56,804 nt of DNA from Candidatus Omnitrophica bacterium UBA6215 (GTDB lineage: Bacteria; Omnitrophota; Gorgyraeia; Pluralincolimonadales; Pluralincolimonadaceae), in the NCBI GenBank assembly GCA_002421665.1, contig DISH01000004.1:447900-504703 (forward strand), read 5' to 3'. The first letter of the stretch is position 1. Each line of letters opens with the position of its first letter. Below the pieces are notes generated by a model, which saw only the letters and a program-made list of their open reading frames with translations, was not told where the DNA came from and made no database searches. Made by a program: the position numbers and the translations under genes. Shown here piece by piece: positions 7,284-49,479 of this stretch.

Positions 7284-8828
7284 ATGCCGCAACAGGAAAC
7301 AGTCCTTGTATTGGATTTTGGCTCGCAGTATAATCAGCTGATAGCACGCCGTGTAAGGGAGAACAGGGTGTTCTCCAGGATAGTGCCCCACGATATCACG
7401 GCCGAAGAGATCCTAAGGTTCGCGCCTAAAGGGCTTATACTCTCGGGAGGTCCCGCCTCCATATACGGCCCGAAGGCCCCCAAACCCAACAAAGAGATCT
7501 TAGGTCTCGGGATACCGGTCCTCGGCATATGTTACGGGATGCAGGCGATGTCGCATATGCTCGGCGGCGGCGTTACCAGGGCAAAGAAACGCGAGTACGG
7601 CCACGCAGAACTCCTCATTGACGACCCCGGGGACCTCTTTTCGGGAATAGACAATAAATCTATCTGCTGGATGAGCCATGGCGACTATGTATCAAAACTG
7701 CCGCCGGGTTTCAGGAAACTAGCCCATACATCCAATACCGGTTTCGCCGCCATAGCCGACAGAAGCCGCGGTCTCTTCGGCGTCCAGTTCCATCCGGAAG
7801 TCGCCCATACCCCTAAGGGCGCGGAGATGATATCAAATTTCCTTTTCAGGATATGCGGCTGTAAGGGCGAATGGACCGCCCAATCCTTTATTGAAGATAC
7901 CGTAAAAAGCATAAGGTCTTTTGTAGGGGACGGCAAAGTAGTCTGCGGCCTTTCGGGCGGGGTGGATTCATCGGTGGCAGCCGTCCTGATAAACAAGGCA
8001 ATAGGCAAACGCCTTATCTGCATATTCATAAATAACGGCGTGCTCCGCAAAGGCGAAGCCGACCGTGTCATAAAGACTTTCAAGAAGCATTTCCACATCA
8101 ATCTGAAATATGTCAATGCCGAGAAGAGGTTCCTCAAAAAACTCAAAGGCGTATTCGACCCGGAGAAGAAGAGGAAGCTAATAGGGCACGAATTCATACG
8201 CGTATTCGAGGAAGAAGCAAAGAAGCTGGGTAAGATCTCATTTCTCGCCCAAGGTACCCTTTACCCGGACGTCATCGAATCGAAATCGGCTTTCGGCGGG
8301 CCCTCGGCTACCATAAAATCCCACCATAATGTGGGGGGGCTCCCTCAGAGGATGAAACTCAAGCTCGTGGAACCGTTGCGCGAGCTCTTCAAGGACGAAG
8401 TTAGGGTTGTCGGCAAAGCCATGGGACTTTCGGATGAGATTACGCAACGCCAGCCTTTTCCGGGCCCGGGTCTAGCAATAAGGGTCATAGGCGATATCAC
8501 CAAGGAACGCCTGGATATACTCCGCGAGGCCGACGCCATAGTCATAGAAGAGATAAAAGCCGCCGGTTTCTACCGCGAAGTATGGCAATCTTTCGCGGTG
8601 CTGCTGCCGATAAAGACCGTCGGTGTAATGGGAGACGAACGCACTTACGAGAACGTCATTGCCCTGCGCGCGGTAACCAGTGCCGACGGGATGACCGCCG
8701 ATTGGGCAAAACTCCCGTACGACCTTCTCGGCAAGATATCAAACAGGATAATAAACGAGGTAAGAGGGGTCAACAGGGTCGTATACGATATCAGCTCAAA
8801 ACCCCCTTCTACGATCGAATGGGAATAA
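7284..8828 (+). CDS. guaA: GMP synthase (glutamine-hydrolysing)
   Basis: GATase-1 domain (GICYGMQ, FHPE), ATP-PPase P-loop SGGVDSSV, C-terminal dimerisation domain ending PPSTIEWE. Confidence 0.95.
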
Positions 8829-8829
8829 T

Positions 8830-11800
8830 ATGCAGCATTCGCATTTCGTCCACCTGCACGTGCACACGCAGTTCAGCCTTCTTGACGGCGCCTGCAAGAT
8901 ACCGGAACTTATAGCCCTCGCTAAAGAATACAGGATGCCTGCCGTGGCGCTTACCGACCACGGGAATATGTTCGGGGCGATAGAGTTCTATCTCGAGGCG
9001 ATGAAGAACGGCATAAAGCCCATAATCGGCTGCGAAATATATGTCGCTCCCGGTTCTCGTTTCGACAAATCCTCCTCGCCCAACGAAGAATCCGCTTATC
9101 ATCTTATATTGCTCTCCAAAGACGAAGAAGGTTACCGCAACCTCATGAAGCTGGTATCGGCCGGCTACCTCGAGGGTTTTTACTACAAGCCGAGGGTCGA
9201 CAAGGAACTTCTCGCCGCCTATTCAAAAGGCCTTATAGCGCAGTCGGCATGCCTGCAGGGGGAGATACCTTACCTTATCGTAAAAGGCAAGTACGAAGAA
9301 GCGAAGGTCGCGGCCGGCCGGTACAAGGAGATCTTCGGGGCGGGGAATTTCTACCTCGAGCTGCAAAAGAACCTTATCCCGGAACAGGAGATAGCAAATG
9401 CCGGCATCCTGAAGCTCTCGAAGGAACTGGATATCCCCCTGGTCGCCACGGGAGACGTACATTATCTTCACAAAAAATCCTCAAGGGCCCACGAGGGGCT
9501 GCTTTGCATCCAGACCCAGAGCACGCTTAACGATCCTGACCACATGAAGTTCTCTACCGACGAGTTCTATTTTAAGTCACCCGAAGAGTTCAAGGACATG
9601 TTCTCGGATGTCCCGCAGGCAGTGGCCAACACGGTAGAAATAGCGGAGAAGTGCAACCTTGAGCTTGATTTCAAAAGGACACACCTTCCCCAGTTTACGC
9701 CGCCTGACGGCAAGTCCAGGGAAGATTACCTTATGGAACTCGTGGAGGCCGGCCTCAATAAACGTTACAAGCAGATAGACGCGGCCGTGCGCGAAAGGGT
9801 CGAACACGAACTTAACATCATAAAGAAGACGGGGTTCACCAGCTATTTCCTCATCGCCTGGGACTTCATTAATTACTCTAAATCGAAGGGGATACCGGTC
9901 GGGCCGGGAAGGGGTTCCGCAGCCGGAAGCGTGGTCAGCTATGCGCTGGGAATAACGGACTTGGACCCGATAAAATACGACCTGATCTTCGAAAGGTTCC
10001 TCAACCCCGACCGCGTAAGTATGCCCGATATCGACATCGACTTCTGCTACGAGCGCAGGGGAGAAGTAATAGAATACGTCACAGAGAAATATTCGAAAGA
10101 GAACGTGGCGCAGGTAATAACCTTCGGTACGATGAAGGCCCGCGCGGTCATAAGGGACGTCGGCAGGGTAACGGGCATGAGCTATGGCGACGTCGACAGG
10201 ATAGCCAAACTGGTGCCGGAAGAATTGGGCATCACGCTCGACAAAGCCCTCAAGGTTGAACCCGAACTGCGTAATCTTTATAAAAGCGACCCGCAAATCA
10301 GGCAGTTAATAGATATATCGACCGAGCTTGAAGGACTCAACCGCCACGCCTCAACCCATGCCGCGGGGGTCGTGATATCTGACAGGCCGCTTACCGACTA
10401 TGTCCCGTTGTTCAAGACCTCCGAAGGCCAGATCTCCACGGGATATGAAATGAAGTCCCTGGAAAAGATAGGCCTGCTAAAGATGGACTTCCTGGGCTTG
10501 AGAACGCTCACGGTCATCGAAGAGACCGTAAAGACCATAAAGAGAACCAAGGGCCTGCAACTGGACCTCGACAATATACCCCTTGACGATCCCAAGACTT
10601 ATGAACTGCTCTCCAACGCGGAATCACTCGGCGTCTTCCAGCTTGAAAGTTCGGGCATGAGGGACATACTCCGCAAGCTCAGACCTACCACTTTCGAGGA
10701 CATAATAGCCATACTTGCTCTTTACAGGCCTGGCCCTATCGGAAGCGGCATGGTAGAGGACTTCATAAAGAGAAAACACGGCGAGATACCCATCAAGTAC
10801 GACCATAAACTGCTCGAACCCATACTCAAGGAAACATACGGCACGATAATATACCAAGAGCAGGTCATGCGCATCGCTTCGTCGCTGGCAGGCTTCTCCA
10901 TGTCACAGGCCGATTCCCTTAGGCGGGCCATGGGAAAGAAGATACCCGAAGAGATGGAACAGGCGCGTTCGAATTTCATAACCGGCGCTTCAAAGAACAA
11001 CATAGACAAGCGCACCGCCGAAAAGATATTCAACCTCATTGAATATTTTGCCGGGTACGGTTTCAACAAATCCCATTCGACGGCATACGCGCTGATCTCA
11101 TACAGGACCGCTTACCTCAAGGCAAATTATCCCGTTGAGTTCATGAGCGCGCTGATGACATCTGAACGCGATAACATCGATAAGGTGGCTTTCTATATCG
11201 AAGAATCGCAAAGGATGGACATACCCATCCAGCCTCCCAGCATAAACGAAAGCTTTTCGAAATTCACCGTATCCGGGAGTTCCATAAGGTTCGGCCTTGG
11301 CGCGGTAAAGAACGTAGGCCAGGGAGCTATAGATTCCGTGGTAAACGCCCGCAGCATGTCCGGAAAATTCAAAAATCTTTATGATTTCTGCGAGAGGGTG
11401 GACCTGAGGCTGGCAAACAGGAAAGTACTTGAAAGCCTCATAAAATGCGGTGCGTTCGACGAATTCGGCTTGCACAGGTCGCAGCTTACCGCGATGCTTG
11501 ATGATTGCCTGGAGTGCGGGGCCAATATGCACAGGGAACGCGCGAGCAGGCAATCGACCTTCTTCGAGGAATTCGGGGCGCACTCAAAAGCGCATCCCGC
11601 CAGGAGACACGAGCCGCCGAAGATACCCGAATGGCCGGAAAGCCAGCTCCTTGCCTTCGAGAAGGAGATGCTGGGTTTCTATGTCACGGGGCATCCCCTG
11701 GCAAAATATGACAAGCTCATACGTTCATATTCAACCTGCTCGGTAAAAGACCTGGGTAAGAGAAGACCTGACGAAGAGGTCAATATCGGCGGCATCATAT

Positions 11801-39997: not shown

Positions 39998-40186
39998 CGT
40001 GCTCCAGACAACGTCCTATAATATATCTTATGTTAAGTACTACAGCACGCGAGTTAACCTGTGGACAAGTTCTTTCCCTTCACTGTGAATATGGCGCTTA
40101 TAAGCCGGTTTTATGGTTGGTTATGGTTGTAGAATTGGCGGGAATTTTGGCCTGGATGGCCCTCTGACGGGCGTTCATGGCAGGAA

Positions 40187-40771
40187 TTATATCAGATCCA
40201 GATTCTCTTCCTTTGGCGGCGAAAAGACCTCAAAATACTCCGCCGGCCGGCTGCCGAGCGCCTCAAAACCGTGCCTTATATTGGCAGGTATGCAGTATGC
40301 GTCACCGGGCCCCAACACTTGGGATTCCTTGCCTATGGTGACCCTTATTTGGCCGGCAAGCACATAGCCGATCTGCTCGTTATTATGCTTATGGTCCGTG
40401 GCCTGGCCGGGCTCGAGTTTTACCCATGTGAATTGGGCATTCTTGCCGGAGATCACTTTGCCGAATATGCCTTCACGCTTCCTGGCAAATTCCTTGCTTC
40501 CGAAGCCCTTAAAAAAGCCCTGCTGCGGCTTGGCTGACTGCTTTGGCTGCCTTTTATCAAGCAATTCTATGGCCCTTGACTTGTAATTCTCGCGCTTCAG
40601 GTAGCCCTTCTTCCGGAGCGCCTCAAGATAGCCCCTTACCGTGCCGGTAGACGAAAAACCCATCTCCCCCGCTATCTCCCTTATGGTCGGCGGCAGGTTC
40701 TTCTCCACTTTCTCTCGGATAAATTTGAGGACCTTCTCTTGTTTGTCGGTCAATTCTACTCGGGGTTTCAT
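40187..40771 (-). CDS. Transcriptional regulator: LexA-type winged-helix DNA-binding domain fused to a cupin domain
   Basis: N-terminus LTDKQEKVLKFIREKVEKNLPPTIREIAGEMGFSSTGTVRGYLEALRKKGYL resembles the LexA DNA-binding domain. The C-terminus is cupin-like (EPGQATDHKHNNEQIGYVLAGQIRVTIG...GPGDAYCIPANIRHGFEA), with no S24 peptidase Ser/Lys. The ATG at 40771 is preferred over the track TTG at 40807, which is the -35 box. Confidence 0.75.
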   Translation of the reverse strand: MKPRVELTDKQEKVLKFIREKVEKNLPPTIREIAGEMGFSSTGTVRGYLEALRKKGYLKRENYKSRAIELLDKRQPKQSAKPQQGFFKGFGSKEFARKREGIFGKVISGKNAQFTWVKLEPGQATDHKHNNEQIGYVLAGQIRVTIGKESQVLGPGDAYCIPANIRHGFEALGSRPAEYFEVFSPPKEENLDLI

Positions 40772-40778
40772 AGGCAGG

Positions 40779-40807
40779 AATATACCACACATTTGTGTGG
40801 GTGTCAA
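40779..40807 (-). promoter_or_regulatory. Promoter with embedded palindromic operator; leaderless transcript of the LexA-wHTH/cupin gene
   Basis: Read on the - strand: TTGACA (40807-40802), 17 nt, TATATT (40784-40779), 7 nt, ATG (40771). The spacer contains the perfect palindrome CCACACA-AA-TGTGTGG (40785-40800). Confidence 0.6.
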
Positions 40808-40844
40808 GAATTTTTAGACGGGCTTGAATCTCAGGGTTCCCTAA

Positions 40845-43166
40845 CTAGCATTGTTCTCTAAAATTTACCCTTTTCGTTTCAAGTCCATATTTTTCAAACT
40901 TATAACGAATATATGATGACATCTCATCCTCGTGAGTTGACATAAATATCTGTCTATCAGAAAATTCATTTCTTAAAATCTCTATCAGTCCCGCCATATT
41001 TATTTCATCCAGTGTCTGGACAGGATCATCGATAAACAACACTTTATATTTTTCGGAATATCTTTTATTCAATGTCATAGTAAATGCAATTATCAACACG
41101 GCTAATTGACCTGCACTCATTGAAAATACGGCATCATGTTGTGATTTTACGGAACTCTCACAAAATCTGATCCCATTATCAGTAGCTATAAATAGCCCGA
41201 GACCGCCCTGGTAATCCTGTGCTATCCTTCCAGAATAAACATGAAACAATATTTCAACATTTTTAATAAGATCGACGCGATATTTAAACAGTGAGGTTTT
41301 ATACACATCCTTCAAATCTTTGAGCTTATCTGTAATCTGACTCGATGTTTTATAATCATTTAATTTCTTTTCATATTGTTCTTTTTTGTCTTTCATAGTT
41401 ACACTCTGATATATCATATATTGCCATTTCAAATATTTTCTTTTCTCTTCAATATTATCAACTGTAATCATTTTTATTTTATCCCATTTGCTATTAAAAT
41501 ATTCAACAAAATAATCACTATAATAAGAATAGATATTTTTTCCGTTAATAGAATATTTTTTATTTTCTATTTCTTTTACTAATAAATAATATTTTTCATC
41601 AAGTTGTTCTGTCTTTTCGCACATAGCCTTATTAATTTGTACACCAATCGATTCCAGCTCCGTATATATCTCATGTAATTCGTTTTCTTGTCGCTTTGCT
41701 TCTTTTAATCCATCAATAAATTTTTTATCAATATTATTATTTTCTAAATAAGCGTTAAAATACTTAATTATTGGGATAATAAATTCATTCTCATAGTTCT
41801 TTAGCGCAGTATTAAATTTTGTTTGCGATTTGTTGGTTATTTGGGCCAACAATTTTGATTTTTCTTCCAATTTTAATTTTAACTGCTTTGCTGACTCCCA
41901 TTCATAGCCACACAGAGGACATTCTTTTTGATCTTCATATATATTTTGCAATTTATAAAAGTGAGATATAAAAGCATCCCTTGAATCTTTTAGCAAGGCT
42001 TCAACCTTAGATAGCGCGTCCATTTGATTATATAATTCACGAATTTTTGTTTGGACATTATAATATGTTTTAATATCAACTATTTTACTAACCATCTCTG
42101 AAAGAATCCCTAATTCCGCCTTTTCTTCTATCACTGTTGATTTGATATCTTTATTGCATTTGCTAATGTATTCAATTATAGATTGCTGTATTATGTAAAT
42201 GTTTTTATATTTTTCATAATCATTTAAGTGTTTATAGTATAATACTATTAACTTAAGCTGATTGTCTTTGTTTAATATTTTATCGATTCTATTATTGATT
42301 TGCATTTTCTTGTATTCTTCTGCATTAATAACTAGATTTTTAATTCTATCTAGTAGGCCATCTTCGCCTATCCACTCAGAATATTGTCCGGTCTTAAAGT
42401 CAACATTCTCATTGTCCCATATACAGTTTTTCCATTCTAGCAATTTAAAATATAAAGGTTTATGCCTAGTATCGACTATTTCATTTGTATTATCTGATAT
42501 TTCTTTCTCTAGAGCATCTAATTCATCTTTTTTCTCTTTACCGCACATTTTCCTAAGCGCATTATATAATGTTTCGATTTTGCTTTGACGATTTTCATAT
42601 TCATCTGTATTGAACAAATATGCAATATTTTCTTGCCTCGTTTTTTCTTTATTTTTTAATAAATATGTATTTTCTTCTTGTTCTACATAATTAAGGAAAT
42701 GAAAATTATCACGGTAATATTCACCCATGATTTTCGTCATAAAAGCTTGTTCGTTGTTAATAATTTTCCCTTCTCTATCTTCATATTTATCTAGTTCATA
42801 TAGTTTTAAATATGATATAAATTCATCGACATTTTTTGCACTTATTAGGTTATGTCTTAATCCTTTTCTCATAATAACTATATTCTCCCCATCTACCTCT
42901 AATTCAGCTTTTATAATAAGGTCTCCTCCTTGTTTATTTAAGAAATAACTCCCTCTTTCTCTTGCTGATACGAGAACATCTTTTTCTAACTCTCTATATC
43001 TCCGTATTTTACCCGTAAGAAGAAGCTCGATCGCATCAAAAAAAGACGTTTTCCCAAATCCATTGGGTCCATCAAATATGATTACATTAGCTGAATTAAA
43101 TTCTTCCGAAAATGTTTTAAATATTTTGAAGCTTTCGATTGATATTTTATTGATTCTGATTGCCAT
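40845..43166 (-). CDS. lmuB: Rad50/SMC-like ABC ATPase with long coiled coil and central CxxC hook (LmuB-like, ABC-three-component ATPase)
   Basis: Walker A FDGPNGFGKTS (nt 43044-43070). About 460 aa of heptad-rich K/E/L/I sequence. CPLC exactly mid-coil (track residues 420-423, nt 41910-41921). Signature-like SMSAGQLAV, Walker B KVLFIDDPVQTLD, H-loop FMSTHEDE. Start ATG 43166 (GAGGA SD) is preferred over 43178. Confidence 0.85.
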   Translation of the reverse strand: MAIRINKISIESFKIFKTFSEEFNSANVIIFDGPNGFGKTSFFDAIELLLTGKIRRYRELEKDVLVSARERGSYFLNKQGGDLIIKAELEVDGENIVIMRKGLRHNLISAKNVDEFISYLKLYELDKYEDREGKIINNEQAFMTKIMGEYYRDNFHFLNYVEQEENTYLLKNKEKTRQENIAYLFNTDEYENRQSKIETLYNALRKMCGKEKKDELDALEKEISDNTNEIVDTRHKPLYFKLLEWKNCIWDNENVDFKTGQYSEWIGEDGLLDRIKNLVINAEEYKKMQINNRIDKILNKDNQLKLIVLYYKHLNDYEKYKNIYIIQQSIIEYISKCNKDIKSTVIEEKAELGILSEMVSKIVDIKTYYNVQTKIRELYNQMDALSKVEALLKDSRDAFISHFYKLQNIYEDQKECPLCGYEWESAKQLKLKLEEKSKLLAQITNKSQTKFNTALKNYENEFIIPIIKYFNAYLENNNIDKKFIDGLKEAKRQENELHEIYTELESIGVQINKAMCEKTEQLDEKYYLLVKEIENKKYSINGKNIYSYYSDYFVEYFNSKWDKIKMITVDNIEEKRKYLKWQYMIYQSVTMKDKKEQYEKKLNDYKTSSQITDKLKDLKDVYKTSLFKYRVDLIKNVEILFHVYSGRIAQDYQGGLGLFIATDNGIRFCESSVKSQHDAVFSMSAGQLAVLIIAFTMTLNKRYSEKYKVLFIDDPVQTLDEINMAGLIEILRNEFSDRQIFMSTHEDEMSSYIRYKFEKYGLETKRVNFREQC

Positions 43167-43863
43167 GTATATCCTCATCTAATAAAGACTTCAATTTTTT
43201 AAATATTTTGGAATCTGTCTTATTAAAATCCAAATCATCAGACAATATACTGTCAAATTCCGTATCAATAAGTTTGTCTATACTTGATAAATGTATAGCT
43301 GCAACCGCTTCGTCTTTCTCTTTGAAAAGAGGCTGAAGGCTCGCATCATTTTCCATTACAACCGGTAGAAAAGGAAGTTTGATCATAATACGATATAATA
43401 GTGCTTCCCATGTCTGGTTGCTTGTATTAACCTTATATCTATCAAATATCTTGTTGTCAATCGCTTGTTTTATGATGAACTCATAGCAGTCTTTATCCGA
43501 AATATTTCTTTTAAGGTCTACGATTTCTTTTGTAGAATAAGCTAACACATATTTTTTAAAAAAGAACGGATTTTCTTCAATTTCCATTTTTGTTTTTTTA
43601 AATATTAGTTTGTCAATATCGCCTTCTTTTGTGTTCCATAATATTAGCATAGATAGATTTTTGTCTACATCTTCATATTGATATACTTGCTTACACAACT
43701 TGAAGTACGATGGCTGCTTTTCTATAATATTTGCAACATCATCTTCGACAATAATCCAATATTGCTTTTTATCGTCTTCTTTGTGTTTAAGTATATGTAC
43801 GTTGTTAATTTCTTTGCATTCATAGCCACTTTTTAGAAATACCTGTTTAATAATAGTAATCAT
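43147..43863 (-). CDS. 238-aa protein in the position of the Lamassu LmuC / ABC-3C middle component
   Basis: No motif recognised. The call rests on size, position between effector and ATPase, the ATGA overlap with the upstream gene and a 20-nt overlap with the ATPase gene. Confidence 0.5.
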   Translation of the reverse strand: MITIIKQVFLKSGYECKEINNVHILKHKEDDKKQYWIIVEDDVANIIEKQPSYFKLCKQVYQYEDVDKNLSMLILWNTKEGDIDKLIFKKTKMEIEENPFFFKKYVLAYSTKEIVDLKRNISDKDCYEFIIKQAIDNKIFDRYKVNTSNQTWEALLYRIMIKLPFLPVVMENDASLQPLFKEKDEAVAAIHLSSIDKLIDTEFDSILSDDLDFNKTDSKIFKKLKSLLDEDIHGNQNQ

Positions 43864-45158
43864 GCGATATGCTCCTTTGCCCTACTTAGAGACACTAATG
43901 ATACTTTTTTCCACTTTGTAATTTTGTCATATCTTTCAGGAGAACTATCAACATTTTTTTGTCTACGAATTTGTTCATATACTGATGTAACATCGATTCC
44001 AGTAGTAATTAAATTACCACATTGATATAGGGTATAAAGATTTTTGGGATTATCTACTATATTCATGCAAATATCTTCAGCAAGGTCTTTAGCCGCATGA
44101 ATCGTCGTAGGATAATATGTGGCATCTTCGCCTTGTTTCCAAATAAATGCATTAATACTTTCACAAAAATCCGTTTTTTTCAATTCTTTCAATATATTTA
44201 AGAACGCATGCCTATAACCTTCGTCGGAAGGTGTGTTATCCTTATATTCTTTTATTGAGCCACATTTGAACTCCTTTTGTGGCATTATGCCTTGCATAAA
44301 TTCTTTCACTTGTTTGCTTGTCATATTTTCTATTTGCATCATGTAGTCTGCCATTTTTTTATGAATGGATTCTTCCAAGGGCCCATGTATATTTTCTTGG
44401 TCCTCAATATATTGAAAGTAATATTCGCGGAGACGAACACGAATTTGACATAGCAAATAAACATCGTCTATTGCTGCCGTTGTTAGGTCATCATCGAGTA
44501 TCCTTTTAAACTGCGATAAACCCATTGTTTCAATGTTATCAGAAACGCTGTAATTGGAGTTATGCATTTTTGCGTGAATCATCAATACCTTTTTTTGTAT
44601 AATATCATCAATAATGACTCGCGTTTTTTCTATATAATCAATATTATTTTTAAATAATTCCTCTTTTCGGCATTCTTTATAATATTTTTCAATCATTTGG
44701 TTAATTTTATTATTAATTTGATCGACCGGACATCTATTAGTGCCATCATGATAATTGTATATTTTAACGGGGGCGTATTCTTTTTCAATATCCGCATCGG
44801 ATTTCGAACTTACATCATTGGCTAAATGAAAATAGGCGTACGAACATCTTATTCTGTTAGCATGATTTCTTAATTTTTCAAATGCATTTATTTTTTCCTT
44901 ATTCTTAATATATGTTGTATAAGCGCTAATCCCACTCCGCTCTATTGCTTTAACTTGATGCAACGATTCGACATCGCCATCTTTGTGAATGCAAAAATCT
45001 TCCAAATATTCTAGCTTAAGAGAATATCCACTTTCTTTGCCATCGCACAAAAGTCTAAGAACATGATATATGGCAACTTTCCCTTGATAAATAAAACCGC
45101 TCCAGCTTGGAATTGCACCGCCTGTTGAAGCTCTATGATCTTCGGTCATTCTTATCAT
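43860..45158 (-). CDS. lmuA: LmuA-like effector with N-terminal Cap4/DUF4297-type PD-(D/E)xK nuclease domain
   Basis: N-terminus STGGAIPSWSGFIYQGKVAIYHVLRLL...LKLEYLEDFCIHKDGDVESLHQVKA fits the DUF4297 pattern (GG..GF.YQ ... E..ED ... QVK). The C-terminal ~330 aa are helical and unassigned. The start (45158 or 45149) overlaps the upstream DUF2130 gene. Confidence 0.7.
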   Translation of the reverse strand: MIRMTEDHRASTGGAIPSWSGFIYQGKVAIYHVLRLLCDGKESGYSLKLEYLEDFCIHKDGDVESLHQVKAIERSGISAYTTYIKNKEKINAFEKLRNHANRIRCSYAYFHLANDVSSKSDADIEKEYAPVKIYNYHDGTNRCPVDQINNKINQMIEKYYKECRKEELFKNNIDYIEKTRVIIDDIIQKKVLMIHAKMHNSNYSVSDNIETMGLSQFKRILDDDLTTAAIDDVYLLCQIRVRLREYYFQYIEDQENIHGPLEESIHKKMADYMMQIENMTSKQVKEFMQGIMPQKEFKCGSIKEYKDNTPSDEGYRHAFLNILKELKKTDFCESINAFIWKQGEDATYYPTTIHAAKDLAEDICMNIVDNPKNLYTLYQCGNLITTGIDVTSVYEQIRRQKNVDSSPERYDKITKWKKVSLVSLSRAKEHIA

Positions 45159-46323
45159 TTTCTTCTGGACTTTTAACGGGTAATTCGAGAATTTTAATCT
45201 GTTGTAACGCAGTGCCTGCTAATCCTTCTAAATCTCCATACATGCCAGCAGTATTGGATATAATTTTTTCTATTTGCTTTTCCCTGTTCCCCCAAATACG
45301 TTGCATTGCCCGTTTTTCAGCTTCAAGATCTTCTTTCATAGCCCTGAAGCCATCTACAATCGCAATTACCCGATTACGAAACTCTACACTAGTCACATAA
45401 CTATATATTAGATCCTTTTTATCATCCTTACCACTTTCAACTTCTTTCGCATTGGCTACTTGAATCAATACCATTCGGAGGGCCAGTGACAGGCTAAGCG
45501 CTGATGGAACATCTGTCACCCAGACACCGTTTATCTGGCGAAAATGATGAAATCCCGAAGGCAAGGCTTCGGATACAAGAACTGCAATATCAGCCTTGGC
45601 TTCGCCTTGGTCATCTTTTAGCTTCTGAATCCAAGAATCGCTCCAATTTTTTACACGTTTTGTCTCCCATAATATTTTCCCACACGGACGTCCAGATTGC
45701 GTTTTAACAGTTTGAATAATATCTGCGCCACGTACGCCTTTTGAGACCGGCTCAATTATGTCAAAAGAAAACTCTCGCCTGAACAATTCCTCTATTTCCA
45801 ATTCAAGCACTTCGCCTTGTGCCTGTTGGGAGCCCTGCTCCATTTTTCTCTTTAATTCCTCGACCTGCTTCAGGGTATCCGAGAGTTTTCTGTCTTTCTC
45901 CGCGTCCTTCAGCTTGTGCTGTTCTTCGAACCTCATTAAAACATTGGCTTCAATTCTTCCTCGCTCTTCGTCAATTTTCCTAGCCGTTTCCAACTCAAGT
46001 GCTTTTTCCTTCTCTTCAAGTTCATGCTGTTTTTTACGCAGTGCCAGTTCATTCTCTTGAGCTTGTTTGAGTCTACGATTACTATCTTCCACCTGAAACT
46101 TTAAATCAGCGATTTCAGTGCTAACTACTTCTTCGGCCTGTTTTTTAAGTTTTGATTCGAGCTCTTCGTGTTGTTTTTTAAGACGGACTTGATATTCGAC
46201 TTCTTTTTCGGATAGTTGCATTTCATATTTTTGGCGAGCACGTTCTTCAATATCACGGGACAGAGCATCAGAAAGTGGTATAAGCTCTTCGCATTTAGGA
46301 CACTTTATGAAATCCTGTGGCAT
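45133..46323 (-). CDS. DUF2130 family protein: N-terminal CxxC, long coiled coil, C-terminal restriction-endonuclease-like domain
   Basis: CPKCEE at residues 8-13. About 170 aa of E/K/L/Q coiled coil. C-terminal GEVLELEIEELFRREFSFDIIEPVSKGVRGADIIQTV...GKILWETKRVKNWSDSWIQKLKDDQ...ADIAVLVSEALP matches my memory of PF09903. AAGGAG SD 9 nt upstream of the ATG. Confidence 0.7.
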   Translation of the reverse strand: MPQDFIKCPKCEELIPLSDALSRDIEERARQKYEMQLSEKEVEYQVRLKKQHEELESKLKKQAEEVVSTEIADLKFQVEDSNRRLKQAQENELALRKKQHELEEKEKALELETARKIDEERGRIEANVLMRFEEQHKLKDAEKDRKLSDTLKQVEELKRKMEQGSQQAQGEVLELEIEELFRREFSFDIIEPVSKGVRGADIIQTVKTQSGRPCGKILWETKRVKNWSDSWIQKLKDDQGEAKADIAVLVSEALPSGFHHFRQINGVWVTDVPSALSLSLALRMVLIQVANAKEVESGKDDKKDLIYSYVTSVEFRNRVIAIVDGFRAMKEDLEAEKRAMQRIWGNREKQIEKIISNTAGMYGDLEGLAGTALQQIKILELPVKSPEENDKNDRRS

Positions 46324-46361: not shown

Positions 46362-46718
46362 TCAGATTAACCCTTCATCAAAAACCCAGAATTCTGTAAA
46401 TTCTTCTTTTTTGGCATCGATTTTTGTCGCTTCCAAGCGCCATACGAAACGGTCGCGAGGAGAAGAACCTTTCTTTCCAAAGGTTCCAAACAAACCATCT
46501 AACACTGTTTTGCAGAGATTGTCTAGATCAGATAGTCGTAACCGTGAGTTTGATAGATGGAAATCTATTCGTACGCTGAAGCGGTGTTGTTCAGGAAATT
46601 GCTCAATTTTATTTAATAAATCACGTTTATATTTTCTTATAATAGCCTTCCTCCCCCACACCTTGATCGAAGGCGTTGGGCAGTAACCTAAAACTTTACC
46701 ATGAGCAATTAATTTCAT
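46362..46718 (-). CDS. rusA: RusA-like Holliday-junction resolvase (endodeoxyribonuclease RusA family)
   Basis: 118 aa. VRIDFHLSNSRLRLSDLDNLCKTVLDGL aligns with E. coli RusA [26 protein letters not shown] (from memory). A PTPS motif lies near the N-terminus. The size matches (RusA is 120 aa). Confidence 0.55.
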   Translation of the reverse strand: MKLIAHGKVLGYCPTPSIKVWGRKAIIRKYKRDLLNKIEQFPEQHRFSVRIDFHLSNSRLRLSDLDNLCKTVLDGLFGTFGKKGSSPRDRFVWRLEATKIDAKKEEFTEFWVFDEGLI

Positions 46719-46780
46719 TTTCTAATTTATTTAACAAAGCATACCACGTTTTGGATTCACCACTGACTTTATTTTACTCC

Positions 46781-46818
46781 AAACAAAAACCCTCCGCAAT
46801 CATTATAATTGCAGAGGG
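46781..46818 (-). terminator. Rho-independent terminator of the PEP-CTERM gene; right boundary of the island
   Basis: On the - strand: CCCTCTGCAAT-TATAATG-ATTGCGGAGGG (one mismatch) followed by TTTTTGTTT. Confidence 0.6.
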
Positions 46819-46844
46819 TTGTGATATTTTTGATTAAACGGGAA

Positions 46845-47574: not shown

Positions 47575-48345
47575 CTACTTCTCAAGCCATGTAAAGGCAG
47601 CTTTTATCCTATCCCAATCGGGATAACCGTCCTTAAACGGATACCCGTGAGGCCCCTGGAATAGATCAAGCTCGGTAACCGCGCCATTCTCCCCTAACTG
47701 AAAAACCGCCTTTTTAGCCATCCACAACGGGCAGATCTTATCTTCCAGGCCATGTTGTATGTAGTATTTCTTGCCTTTAGCAAGGGAAAGCGAAGGCAAC
47801 TGATCAATCTTAAATACGGAAGAAAGTACGTAATAACCCTTAAAACAATCCGGATTTGAAAGCGAAATAGCGTAAACCGCGGGGCCGCCGGAAGAAATCC
47901 CGTGCAACCAAATATAGTCAGGATTAATTTTATTCTCTTTTACAACCTCGCCGACCAACTCGGAGACAAACTCCTCGGTTGTAAACCTCATGCCTTTTAC
48001 GACATCTTTACATTTATCTGTAGGCCATGTAATTGTCTGGTCTTTATCCCATTTAGGCGCGACCGGCAAAACTACTATATATCTGTCTCCCAGTGAATTC
48101 CTGATGACATTTTTCCAGAACGGCACGGTCTTTCCCCCATCACCATCCCCGCCTGCAAGCACAACTACAAGACCGCAGCCTTCTTTTGGGACATTATTGG
48201 GCACCAGTATCCAATATTTCATATTGCTATTATTGCGTACCTGCCGTTGGACAGACTTTATCCCCTCAACCTCAGCTTTAACATTAAAAACCGGGGACAA
48301 AAACACAAATATAATTAATACGAGACAGCTAAATCCCTTATTCAC
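47575..48345 (-). CDS. Secreted alpha/beta-hydrolase (carboxylesterase/phospholipase-type)
   Basis: Signal peptide. GxSxG nucleophile elbow HGISSGG. C-terminal HG..D/H region (IQHGLEDKICP...GPHGYP). Confidence 0.7.
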   Translation of the reverse strand: MNKGFSCLVLIIFVFLSPVFNVKAEVEGIKSVQRQVRNNSNMKYWILVPNNVPKEGCGLVVVLAGGDGDGGKTVPFWKNVIRNSLGDRYIVVLPVAPKWDKDQTITWPTDKCKDVVKGMRFTTEEFVSELVGEVVKENKINPDYIWLHGISSGGPAVYAISLSNPDCFKGYYVLSSVFKIDQLPSLSLAKGKKYYIQHGLEDKICPLWMAKKAVFQLGENGAVTELDLFQGPHGYPFKDGYPDWDRIKAAFTWLEK

Positions 48346-48396: not shown

Positions 48397-49479
48397 CTAT
48401 TTCAACCGGTCGCTGACGTCAACCGCGCCCTGCGGTTTCTCGTCCATGGGAATGGCCTTCTGCGGCGCGCCGGGGTTAAGGTCAAACTTCTTCATGTCCA
48501 CCTTCTTCCAGGCGGTGTTTTCGTAGGTCTTGTAATACAGGACAAGGTTCGTCAGGTCCTTTATGACCACCCACTGGGAGAAGCCCTCCATCCTCACGAA
48601 CGGCGCGGGGTTCTCCTTTATGACACCCCTGGGTATATCCACGACATTTAGGATATGTTCGGCCTGGTTGACGGCTTCTACGGAATCTTTGGCCGGCTGG
48701 GCCTCATCCACGCAAAAGGCTATCCTCACGAACCTCGAAGGCGGCGTCCAATCGCCGGGCAGGCCGAGCATACCGCTTCCGACGCCCGTCGGATCTATCT
48801 TGACGCCGTTTATGCTCCTGTCTTTCCTGTCATGCGCGTCGAGGTTGATATAATTGCGCAGGTTGTTCATCTGCCACGGGAAGTCCGGGCGGTTCGTCAT
48901 CACGCCGAGGGGATTATCGTAAATATTCACCTTCCCGTCGATGAATTCGATGACAAGGTTCTTGCCGGAGGCATCGTGCAGGGCAACGTGCATGCCGAGC
49001 GGGCCGTGCATCTTTTTGATGGTCACATTCGCCACGTTTATCGATGGCAGGCCGGCCCTCGCCTCGTCCGTCGTCGCGAAATTGCCCATTATCCATGAAC
49101 ACAGGTCAATAACAGTGACGAATTTGCCGGGCTCGGCCGGCTGGTATTCTGCGCCCGTGAACATCAAGGCGTCGAAAGCGAGGCCTTTCTCGTTCATCCC
49201 CTCGACATAGGCATTCTTTATGTCAAAAGACTCTATCCCGAAAAATCCGTATTTATTCGTCCAGGTAAGGCCCTTCACACCCTTGTCGCCGATACTGGTA
49301 AATTGCTGTCCGCGCGGGACCGCTATTATCCGCGAATGAAGATCAGTCGGGAATTCCATCGAACGGCCGATGACAACGGTGCCGTCCTTGGCCCTTACCT
49401 GGAAATCGGAACAGGCAAAAGACGCCGCGGCCACGCTAAGCGCCAGGAAACAAACGCAAAGAACCTTTAAGTAAGACAT
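48397..49479 (-). CDS. Ntn hydrolase of the choloylglycine hydrolase / penicillin V acylase family (linear amide C-N hydrolase)
   Basis: The signal peptide ends ...AASFA, followed immediately by Cys (CSDFQVRAKDGTVVIGRSMEF), which is the N-terminal nucleophile arrangement of this family. 360 aa. Confidence 0.8.
   Translation of the reverse strand: MSYLKVLCVCFLALSVAAASFACSDFQVRAKDGTVVIGRSMEFPTDLHSRIIAVPRGQQFTSIGDKGVKGLTWTNKYGFFGIESFDIKNAYVEGMNEKGLAFDALMFTGAEYQPAEPGKFVTVIDLCSWIMGNFATTDEARAGLPSINVANVTIKKMHGPLGMHVALHDASGKNLVIEFIDGKVNIYDNPLGVMTNRPDFPWQMNNLRNYINLDAHDRKDRSINGVKIDPTGVGSGMLGLPGDWTPPSRFVRIAFCVDEAQPAKDSVEAVNQAEHILNVVDIPRGVIKENPAPFVRMEGFSQWVVIKDLTNLVLYYKTYENTAWKKVDMKKFDLNPGAPQKAIPMDEKPQGAVDVSDRLK

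Follow-up and report, generated by a model that had tools for sequence, protein, structure and literature searches.

How two genes with separate histories come to share nucleotides, and whether the shared nucleotides affect their expression, is the question raised by a locus in the uncultured Candidatus Omnitrophica bacterium UBA6215. The DNA analysed here is a stretch of 56,804 nt from this bacterium (the window, along which all coordinates are counted). It contains a 5.9-kb block of five genes, all on the minus strand and in the order rusA-like, DUF2130, lmuA, lmuC and lmuB, in which the end of the DUF2130 gene overlaps the start of lmuA. The last three genes appear to form a Lamassu defence operon. 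The explanation favoured here, to which a probability of about 0.6 is given as a whole, is that the overlap is the fused joint between two modules of one horizontally acquired operon, which comprises a RusA-like gene, a gene for a coiled-coil PD-(D/E)xK nuclease (DUF2130) and a short Cap4 Lamassu. Homologous loci fetched for comparison carry L-numbers (L005, L177, etc.).

The overlap was described correctly in a preliminary description made from the sequence alone. The DUF2130 gene ends at TAG 45135–45133, and lmuA has in-frame ATG codons at 45149 and 45158, which give overlaps of 17 and 26 nt and LmuA proteins of 429 and 432 residues, respectively. The last five DUF2130 codons and the stop (...N D R R S, stop) are paired with lmuA codons M T E D H R. 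It was also claimed that the lmuA start cannot be moved downstream, and this holds. The codons from 45149 to the invariant Ala15 (ACC GAA GAT CAT AGA GCT TCA ACA GGC GGT) include no start codon, and the conserved block lies where it was said to lie, with A15, G21, Y24, Q25 and G26 invariant in 50 homologues. The overlap is therefore 17 nt at the minimum and 26 nt at the maximum, and a downstream lmuA start is rejected. ATG 45149 is 15 codons from the WSGF motif, a spacing that is 12–15 codons in the closest homologues and mostly 12–20 in the family, and several LmuA homologues start with MP(E/N) or MT; thus ATG 45149 appears slightly favoured over 45158.

An overlap of this kind might be an artefact of annotation or assembly, through a wrong start codon or a chimeric contig. 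Gene callers choose the longest open reading frame, here that of ATG 45158, and the true start may be ATG 45149; the absence of any start codon between 45149 and the invariant residues speaks against the artefact nonetheless. So does the recurrence of the joint, which was found in 13 contigs. The runs of three studies assemble it identically, and a variant from a fourth study differs at 18 bases (about 2%), with zero indels. An assembly chimera is rejected on these independent runs and variant copies, and an artefact of either kind is hardly credible. Nor is an overlap of 17–26 nt unusual in size in this genome, as gene calls nearby show overlaps of 20 nt (lmuC/lmuB) and 13 nt (glpD/CBAH).

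The tail of the DUF2130 protein provides the evidence on how the joint was formed. All of the 120 closest DUF2130 homologues end in ...IKILELP followed by 4–20 variable, mostly acidic residues. The window tail is VKSPEENDKNDRRS, and an example from the closest clade is SGNPEQEEKHD. The DNA encoding the tail is colinear with that of L009 and L008 through a GAC codon, after which the similarity stops. The window codons are CCA GAA GAA AAT GAT AAG AAT GAC CGA AGA TCA TAG and those of L009 are CCA GAA CAA GAA GAA AAA CAT GAC TGA; the TGA or TAA stop of solo DUF2130 genes thus aligns with the window CGA at 45144–45142. Read-through would therefore be confined to the last three residues, RRS. The preliminary description suggested that about 15 residues of the tail may be read-through into the Lamassu cassette: the reading frame does enter lmuA and RRS looks like read-through, but the tail is typical of the family up to ...KND, and three residues at most are added.

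The lmuA ATG at 45149 sits within an ATGAC pentamer that is also found in solo tails. In the sequence of events proposed, the lineages of the window and L005 descend from one in which a cassette exchange would have attached lmuA to the end of the DUF2130 tail, at or inside its terminal ATGAC. The exchange would have replaced the DUF2130 stop with CGA and extended the reading frame by three codons (RRS) to the next TAG, with a 17-nt out-of-frame overlap as the outcome. A crossover at or near ATGAC would explain both the lost stop and the presence of Thr instead of Pro at LmuA position 2. Both overlapping segments are unconstrained, as one is the predicted disordered tail of DUF2130 and the other the variable N-terminus of LmuA.

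Exchange of genes beside DUF2130 is well documented among its relatives. The window DUF2130 is 82–89% identical to copies that have other partners or none (L008, L009); in L009 the gene stands alone among housekeeping genes. The window LmuA has no relative above 41% identity except for a 96% copy in L005. In 21 independent loci DUF2130 is at least about 60% identical to that of the window and the gene following it on the same strand can be read. This following gene matches a PADLOC model in 19 of the 21: Old/GajA-like in L094, L100, L102, L107, L108 and L109; PDC-S06 in L008, L098, L112 and L115; PDC-S46 in L103; PDC-S02 in L095; Ppl in L116 and, weakly, in L101 and L113; and LmuA in the window, L010, L097 and L111. 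There is no PADLOC match after DUF2130 in L009 and L110. In more distant DUF2130 loci the next gene matches PADLOC in five of ten. On the upstream side DUF2130 is found beside GmrSD, type IIG/ISP restriction-modification, DUF499, Old-like and Ppl genes.

The identity matrix of DUF2130 does not track the partner. The window DUF2130, linked to a short Lamassu, is nearest to that of L008 (PDC-S06, 89%) and L009 (solo, 82%); that of L097, linked to a long Lamassu, is nearest to L100 (Old, 87%); and that of L111 is nearest to L116 (Ppl, 81%). Partner exchange beside DUF2130 thus appears to be frequent. In addition, close DUF2130 relatives precede differing defence genes, which argues that cassette exchange at the 3′ end of DUF2130 is recurrent.

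Other neighbours of DUF2130 can be mentioned here. A GmrSD-type gene lies 33–41 nt upstream of DUF2130 in L096, L097 and L098, and what follows DUF2130 differs among the three (contig end, long Lamassu and PDC-S06, respectively); GmrSD and DUF2130 may be a conserved pair. Nucleoside-deoxyribosyltransferase-like genes adjoin DUF2130 in two loci. L119 (4132–8285) has an AAA_15 ATPase gene, DUF2130 and then a PADLOC NDT_II-A gene (5.6e-80) with an ATGA overlap, and L010 (5820–6719) has a weak Nuc_deoxyrib_tr match upstream of DUF2130.

The comparison with L005 shows that the five genes occur as a unit. The block recurs in L005–L007 at about 96% nucleotide identity and with the same joint, and the gene ahead of it in these loci is a cupin gene, unlike in the window; a search for the junction in other assemblies, as suggested by the preliminary description, was thus successful. 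Divergence between the window and L005 is even, at 2–3%, from lmuB through the 3′ two-thirds of DUF2130, the joint included. Mismatch density jumps at ∼45986, being 2.75% below and 8.6% above this position. At fourfold sites there are 6 differences in 30 in DUF2130 codons 1–112 and 2 in 106 in codons 113–396. In the rusA-like gene and the 5′ third of DUF2130, synonymous divergence is ∼10 times that of the remaining block. The joint itself is rejected as a site of recent recombination, as the step in divergence lies inside DUF2130. This is the sole detectable breakpoint. DUF2130 is not a resident gene behind which the Lamassu landed in this genome.

The location of the block was assessed with L177, a related Omnitrophota metagenome-assembled genome (GCA_964484255.1) used as a syntenic comparison. 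Window and L177 have a common backbone of 73–86% nucleotide identity, which consists of glpK, glpD, a 256-aa esterase-like gene, a CBM/PEP-CTERM gene, the 5′ part of a LexA-like gene and an Inositol_P gene; for the flanks the identity is 82–86%. Proteins that cluster at 90% identity or more with the flanking glpK, glpD and CBAH products are named Candidatus Omnitrophota. The slot that holds the block lies between the CBM/PEP-CTERM gene and the LexA-like regulator gene, and the same slot in L177 holds a SIR2 + nSTAND NTPase gene and a 220-aa gene. By homology with L177, the edges of the cargo lie at about 40825–40842, where host-type composition resumes, and at 46766. A second slot, between the LexA-like and Inositol_P genes, is empty in the window (40068–40187, about 120 nt) and in L177 (8914–12668) contains a restriction-modification system, with genes for an N6/N4 methylase and an R.Pab1-type endonuclease and a 392-aa gene, all at 32–35% GC. 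The left border element is common to the window, L005 and L177, with genes that differ on one side or the other. A related genome thus has the same flanks around different defence genes, and the rusA-like–DUF2130–LmuA–LmuC–LmuB block appears from these comparisons to be exchangeable cargo in a defence hotspot. It resembles known defence hotspots in its conserved flanks and differing cargo, and differs from them in its left border, a terminator-like hairpin element, and in the lack of mobility signatures: gene calls for the 17-kb loci include no integrase, and a search around the block found no direct or inverted repeats that would mark a mobile element.

Base composition agrees with a foreign origin of the whole island, whose GC content at third codon positions (GC3) is 25–35%, compared with 73% in host genes; the Lamassu genes are no more foreign to the host than DUF2130 and the rusA-like gene (GC3 of DUF2130 vs host, odds ratio 0.19, p=2e-39). 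The preliminary description placed an abrupt compositional seam at the joint, with a proposal of different histories for the two halves and a GC and codon-usage scan as the check. The scan does show an internal step in raw GC of ∼8–12 points near the joint. However, a two-segment maximum-likelihood scan of raw GC locates the breakpoint at 44923 (support 44895–45100), ∼200 nt inside lmuA, and the strongest borders are the island edges at ∼40.83 and 46.77 kb, with large raw-GC breakpoints at 40842 and 46863. The internal step is mostly one of first codon positions (GC1), which is 57.9% in DUF2130 vs 38–42% in lmuA, lmuC and lmuB; the residues that abound are E, A, R, Q and L in DUF2130 and N, I, Y and K in the Lamassu proteins. 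At synonymous sites, in tests stratified by codon family, the difference is modest, with an odds ratio of 1.42 (p=0.0036) for DUF2130 and rusA vs lmuACB and 1.41 (p=0.054) for DUF2130 vs lmuA alone. The GC seam is rejected as a recombination point, as its breakpoint is inside lmuA and it is chiefly a GC1 effect.

The distant DUF2130–Lamassu loci L010 and L012 show the same raw step, with a synonymous difference that is not significant. Among 22 DUF2130/partner pairs, DUF2130 exceeds the partner in GC1 in 18 (mean +7.9 points) and in GC3 also in 18 (mean +4.7 points); the drop in GC after DUF2130 is therefore characteristic of this family and the genes it is paired with. Protein composition accounts for part of it, and a true tendency of the partners towards higher AT for another part.

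These data bear on the proposal that the Lamassu was inserted behind a resident DUF2130 gene, with the GC seam as the insertion point and ∼15 residues of read-through. The raw GC step, the significant synonymous GC3 difference and the higher GC3 of DUF2130 in 18 of 22 loci are in line with it. Set against these are the foreign composition of both DUF2130 and the rusA-like gene, the L177 flanks, which lack DUF2130 and hold other defence cargo, the whole block behind another gene in L005, the GC breakpoint within lmuA, the family-typical tail and the even divergence across the joint. A pre-existing DUF2130 in this genome is thus very improbable. The two halves do have different histories at a deeper level, that of the DUF2130 relatives at 82–89% identity with other partners or none, and the preliminary notion that a cassette was captured, with some read-through, holds in general form once moved to that level and reduced to three residues.

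The fused joint would also have consequences for translation. The anti-Shine-Dalgarno hybridization energies are −8.7 kcal/mol for DUF2130, −7.9 for lmuC and −6.1 for lmuB; the two possible starts of lmuA have −1.0 and −0.4 kcal/mol. In L010 and L012 lmuA has values of −5.6 and −7.6. Every other long gene of the operon has a canonical Shine-Dalgarno site and lmuA has none. The scan predicted no promoter or terminator between DUF2130 and lmuA. The five genes would be transcribed together, with DUF2130, lmuC and lmuB each translated from its own AGGAG-type site. As lmuA has no such site, its translation probably depends for the most part on ribosomes that have finished DUF2130, 14 nt downstream of the lmuA ATG, and start again. 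Reinitiation would tie the output of LmuA to that of DUF2130 and hold the effector below LmuB and LmuC in amount. By analogy, a scarce LmuA fits the published A1B2C1 complex and the toxicity of excess LmuA.

In translationally coupled overlapping gene pairs that use termination–reinitiation, the usual overlap is 1 or 4 nt. DUF2130–lmuA resembles such pairs in that the downstream start precedes the upstream stop and lmuA lacks its own Shine-Dalgarno site. It differs in its overlap of 17–26 nt. An overlap and a start without a Shine-Dalgarno site beside strong neighbouring sites are both seen, as coupling would require, and translational coupling of the two genes is plausible.

Several points weigh against the fused-joint explanation or its parts. 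The tail alignment that places the junction spans only about 24 nt and is of low complexity. RNA structure at the junction is no stronger than in shuffled controls (z=+1.2), and RNA runs were searched for this sequence with none matched. About a third of lmuA homologues, many of them in Bacteroidota, also have no Shine-Dalgarno match, so its absence in lmuA is not unique. Reinitiation 14–23 nt upstream of a stop is possible and usually inefficient. The PDC-S models represent candidate defence families that are unvalidated. In a survey of the LmuACB clade (80 GTDB loci fetched, 79 independent, as L016 duplicates L010), 77 of the 79 have no adjacent DUF2130 and two have it; Lamassu therefore does not need DUF2130. 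Lastly, the many unrelated partners of DUF2130 and its position after lmuB in some loci are explained by simple co-location no less than by co-function.

DUF2130 nonetheless adjoins Lamassu in at least seven independent loci, the window included, with two types of Lamassu represented and positions at either end of the operon. It lies directly ahead of lmuA in L010/L016 (3-nt gap) and L012 (15-nt gap), and directly past lmuB in L059 (21-nt gap) and L117 (37-nt gap). A programmed frameshift that would fuse DUF2130 to LmuA was also considered; the relatives L010 and L012 have spacers of 3 and 15 nt, respectively, separating the genes. In L097/L099 it precedes, with a 4-nt ATGA overlap, a long Lamassu with a 610-aa LmuA, a 173-aa middle gene and a 1020-aa LmuB. 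In L111 it is followed, after a 12-nt gap, by a 480-aa protein that matches the same PADLOC LmuA model as that of L097 (3.7e-20). The locus of the closest LmuA homologue outside L005 (L011, 41%) has no DUF2130; a gene for a 577-aa RmuC-domain protein follows directly after lmuB (8256–9989), and a 301-aa gene with no family match precedes lmuA.

This raises the question of whether DUF2130 is a working fourth component of this Lamassu, e.g. by acting alongside LmuB and LmuC as a sensor of DNA structure or as a second nuclease, with the overlap serving to couple their synthesis. Adjacency to two non-homologous Lamassu types, the tight spacing (−17/−26, −4, +3, +12, +15, +21 and +37 nt), the RmuC-domain gene after lmuB in L011, the presence of D..ExK and CxxC motifs in every Lamassu-linked copy, and the missing Shine-Dalgarno site of lmuA speak for this reading. 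Against it, DUF2130 is missing beside nearly all loci of the same clade, three genes suffice in the Cap4 Lamassu of Vibrio cholerae (PMC12663957), the Lamassu-linked copies are not monophyletic, each being nearest to copies with other partners, and the position relative to the operon varies. A fourth component is for these reasons unlikely.

Alternatively, DUF2130 might be an independent defence or repair nuclease that shares islands with such systems, the overlap being an accident of compaction and lmuA being translated alone from an A-rich leader. The solo gene of L009, the many unrelated systems that adjoin DUF2130, including GmrSD and restriction-modification genes upstream, the long overlaps common in the gene calls of this genome (13, 20 and 26 nt) and the Shine-Dalgarno site missing in a third of lmuA homologues are all compatible with this. 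It has to contend with the same-strand, immediately upstream bias of DUF2130 (19 of 21), which exceeds the expectation for loose island membership, and with the fact that lmuA alone among the long genes of the operon has no canonical Shine-Dalgarno site. It is the strongest competitor of the fused joint, and is a real possibility without being the probable one. A further reading, tentative and improbable, is that DUF2130 is a conserved partner (co-nuclease, sensor or regulator) of modular defence loci, and that the coupled DUF2130–lmuA joint is the tightest known form of this partnership. In most cases the variable downstream module would then belong to the ABC/SMC-type ATPase systems (Old/Gabija-like, PDC-S06, PDC-S46, Ppl, and Lamassu of the short or long type).

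The protein itself has features of a putative PD-(D/E)xK nuclease. Pfam PF09903 matches it at 5.5e-70, and in 51 sequences D201, E220, K222 and the N-terminal CxxC are invariant; D..ExK and CxxC are retained in all Lamassu-linked copies. The AlphaFold model (predicted local distance difference test score, pLDDT, 76.8; tail <50) consists of an N-terminal CxxC hairpin, one ∼140-residue helix, an alpha/beta core, C-terminal helices and a disordered tail from residue ∼373. In the model, the order of strands and helices in core residues 168–271 is that expected for a restriction-endonuclease-like fold. The best Foldseek matches are PD-(D/E)xK nucleases (Bax1, McrC, EndoMS, SPARDA DREN and DdmD), and these are weak (E 0.02–0.1, none below 0.001). 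No published function for DUF2130, and no link of DUF2130 or COG4487 to defence, was found in the literature searched; PADLOC v2 models gave no match at E≤0.01 and PHROG gave none. In IMG/VR (2.9 million viral contigs) DUF2130 is essentially absent, with one weak partial match. A phage origin is thus rejected, and DUF2130 is a cellular, non-phage family.

RmuC has a long N-terminal coiled coil and a PD-(D/E)xK core, a build similar to that of DUF2130. Both are listed as PD-(D/E)XK families, with DUF2130 of unknown function (PMC3424549). A defence role has been shown for Shield, with its RmuC-domain nuclease ShdA (PMC10952713). DUF2130 differs in belonging to a Pfam family of its own (PF09903, COG4487), in its N-terminal CxxC hairpin, and in being without any PADLOC match or published function.

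As judged from family matches and gene order, lmuA, lmuC and lmuB appear to be a short Cap4-nuclease Lamassu, an ordinary though very divergent member of its family. LmuB matches the PADLOC LmuB model at 4.4e-61 over residues 5–770 and has Pfam SMC_N and AAA_23 matches at both ends; its best sequence match in PDB is Rad50. LmuA matches Pfam CTD1 (2.4e-30) and PADLOC LmuA (7.4e-22), and Cap4_nuclease below threshold (7e-4, 20.2 bits vs a cut-off of 26.2). Its residues D54, H67, Q68, V69 and K70 are invariant in 50 homologues, and D54, Q68 and K70 are the nuclease residues. LmuC matches Pfam MComp1 above the cut-off (3.1e-10), and the middle position of its gene is conserved in 80 loci. PDB sequence searches with single sequences and profiles gave nothing useful for DUF2130, the RusA-like protein or LmuA.

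The Lamassu of V. cholerae (Vc-Cap4/DdmABC; short, type II) senses DNA ends as an A1B2C1 complex, its LmuA tetramerizes for DNA cutting, and excess LmuA is toxic (PMC12663957). The gene order LmuA, LmuC, LmuB, the D...QxK nuclease residues and a tight operon with overlapping genes are common to both systems, and Vibrio members are among the homologues of the window operon at about 29% identity. The window operon adds a DUF2130 gene fused upstream by a 17–26-nt overlap and a RusA-like gene before it. It also differs in that its lmuA is without its own ribosome-binding site, its host belongs to Omnitrophota, and its sequence is very divergent; no PDB sequence match was found for LmuA even with a profile.

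Features of the five-gene block and its borders, with base composition where given
Feature	Position	Strand	Remarks	GC / GC1 / GC3 (%)
Left border element of hotspot slot	46768..46830	-	63 nt	
Terminator-like hairpin in left border element	46820-46788	-	15 pairs, T run after; terminator scan	
RusA-like gene	46362..46718	-	divergent, 118 aa; first cargo gene; no Shine-Dalgarno site	38.7 / 45.4 / 33.6
DUF2130 gene	45133..46323	-	396 aa; TAG stop 45135-45133; strong Shine-Dalgarno AGGAG; Pfam PF09903	41.4 / 57.9 / 35.3
Recombination breakpoint in DUF2130	45913..46073, best 45986	-	window vs L005 comparison	
DUF2130/lmuA overlap	45133..45149 (to 45158 with upstream ATG)	-	read from sequence; also in L005-L007	
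CGA (Arg) codon opposite stop of closest solo DUF2130 genes	45142..45144	-	codon comparison with L009, L008	
lmuA	43860..45149 (or 45158)	-	Cap4-type nuclease N-domain + ABC-3C CTD1 domain; no Shine-Dalgarno site	33.2 / 42.0 / 27.7
lmuC	43147..43863	-	238 aa, MComp1; overlaps lmuA by 4 nt (ATGA); own Shine-Dalgarno site	29.6 / 40.6 / 28.9
lmuB	40845..43166 (start 43178 possible)	-	773 aa, SMC/Rad50-like ABC ATPase; overlaps lmuC by 20 nt; own Shine-Dalgarno site	28.7 / 38.0 / 25.2
Right border: backbone LexA-like regulator gene, promoter and inverted repeat	40187..40842	-	GC breakpoint, promoter scan, L177 homology	
Host genes glpK, glpD, CBAH, PEP-CTERM				53-58 / / 65-74

The RusA-like protein matches Pfam RusA below threshold (E=2.6e-3, 18.8 bits; cut-off 22.8). 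RusA is the sole Pfam match across eight of eight members of its family (best 3.6e-4), PHROG 34 (RusA-like resolvase) matches it at 6e-5, and a DLDN..K..LDG motif is conserved. The AlphaFold model (pLDDT 41) is too poor for judging the fold. The gene is rejected as a fixed partner of DUF2130, as homologues at 73–75% identity occur in other contexts without DUF2130.

The LexA-like regulator gene at the right border (40187–40792) encodes a helix-turn-helix and a cupin C-domain. A strong predicted promoter of this gene (40807–40779, scan score 11/12; TTGACA-17-TATATT with TG) shares sequence with the inverted repeat CCACACA-AA-TGTGTGG, a possible operator. In L177 the promoter and 5′ part of this gene are alike (73% identity) and the gene has a Peptidase_S24 end, a domain swap. 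At the left border, 15 nt of L005 (215–230) after the border hairpin are missing in the window (46755–46775), and L177 has comparable extra bases. Further along the backbone, the 256-aa esterase-like gene (47575–48345) has a GC content of 44% and a GC3 of 47.5% vs 65–74% GC3 in its neighbours, yet is conserved in L177. The CBAH gene (choloylglycine hydrolase, 48397–49479) is absent from the syntenic region of L177, which keeps only a 74-nt piece of it (48474–48547), displaced to a position past the CBM gene; it represents a further indel in this region.

An overlapping joint in a defence operon is not surprising in itself, and the Lamassu family is already known. What is new is that DUF2130, a widespread family, is found, among close relatives of the window gene, almost always directly upstream of exchangeable defence genes, and repeatedly beside Lamassu. 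This strong and hitherto undescribed association is the most interesting by-product of the analysis, and the neighbour pattern makes DUF2130 a candidate defence or accessory nuclease that is absent from current defence catalogues. Also new is a datable fusion of modules that can be followed base by base, in which a stop appears to have been lost, three codons read through and no ribosome-binding site kept. The locus also puts on record a defence hotspot in a phylum, Omnitrophota, that has hardly any experimental genetics, and the fused genes would provide a simple test bed for whether fusions of this kind set the dosage of an effector.

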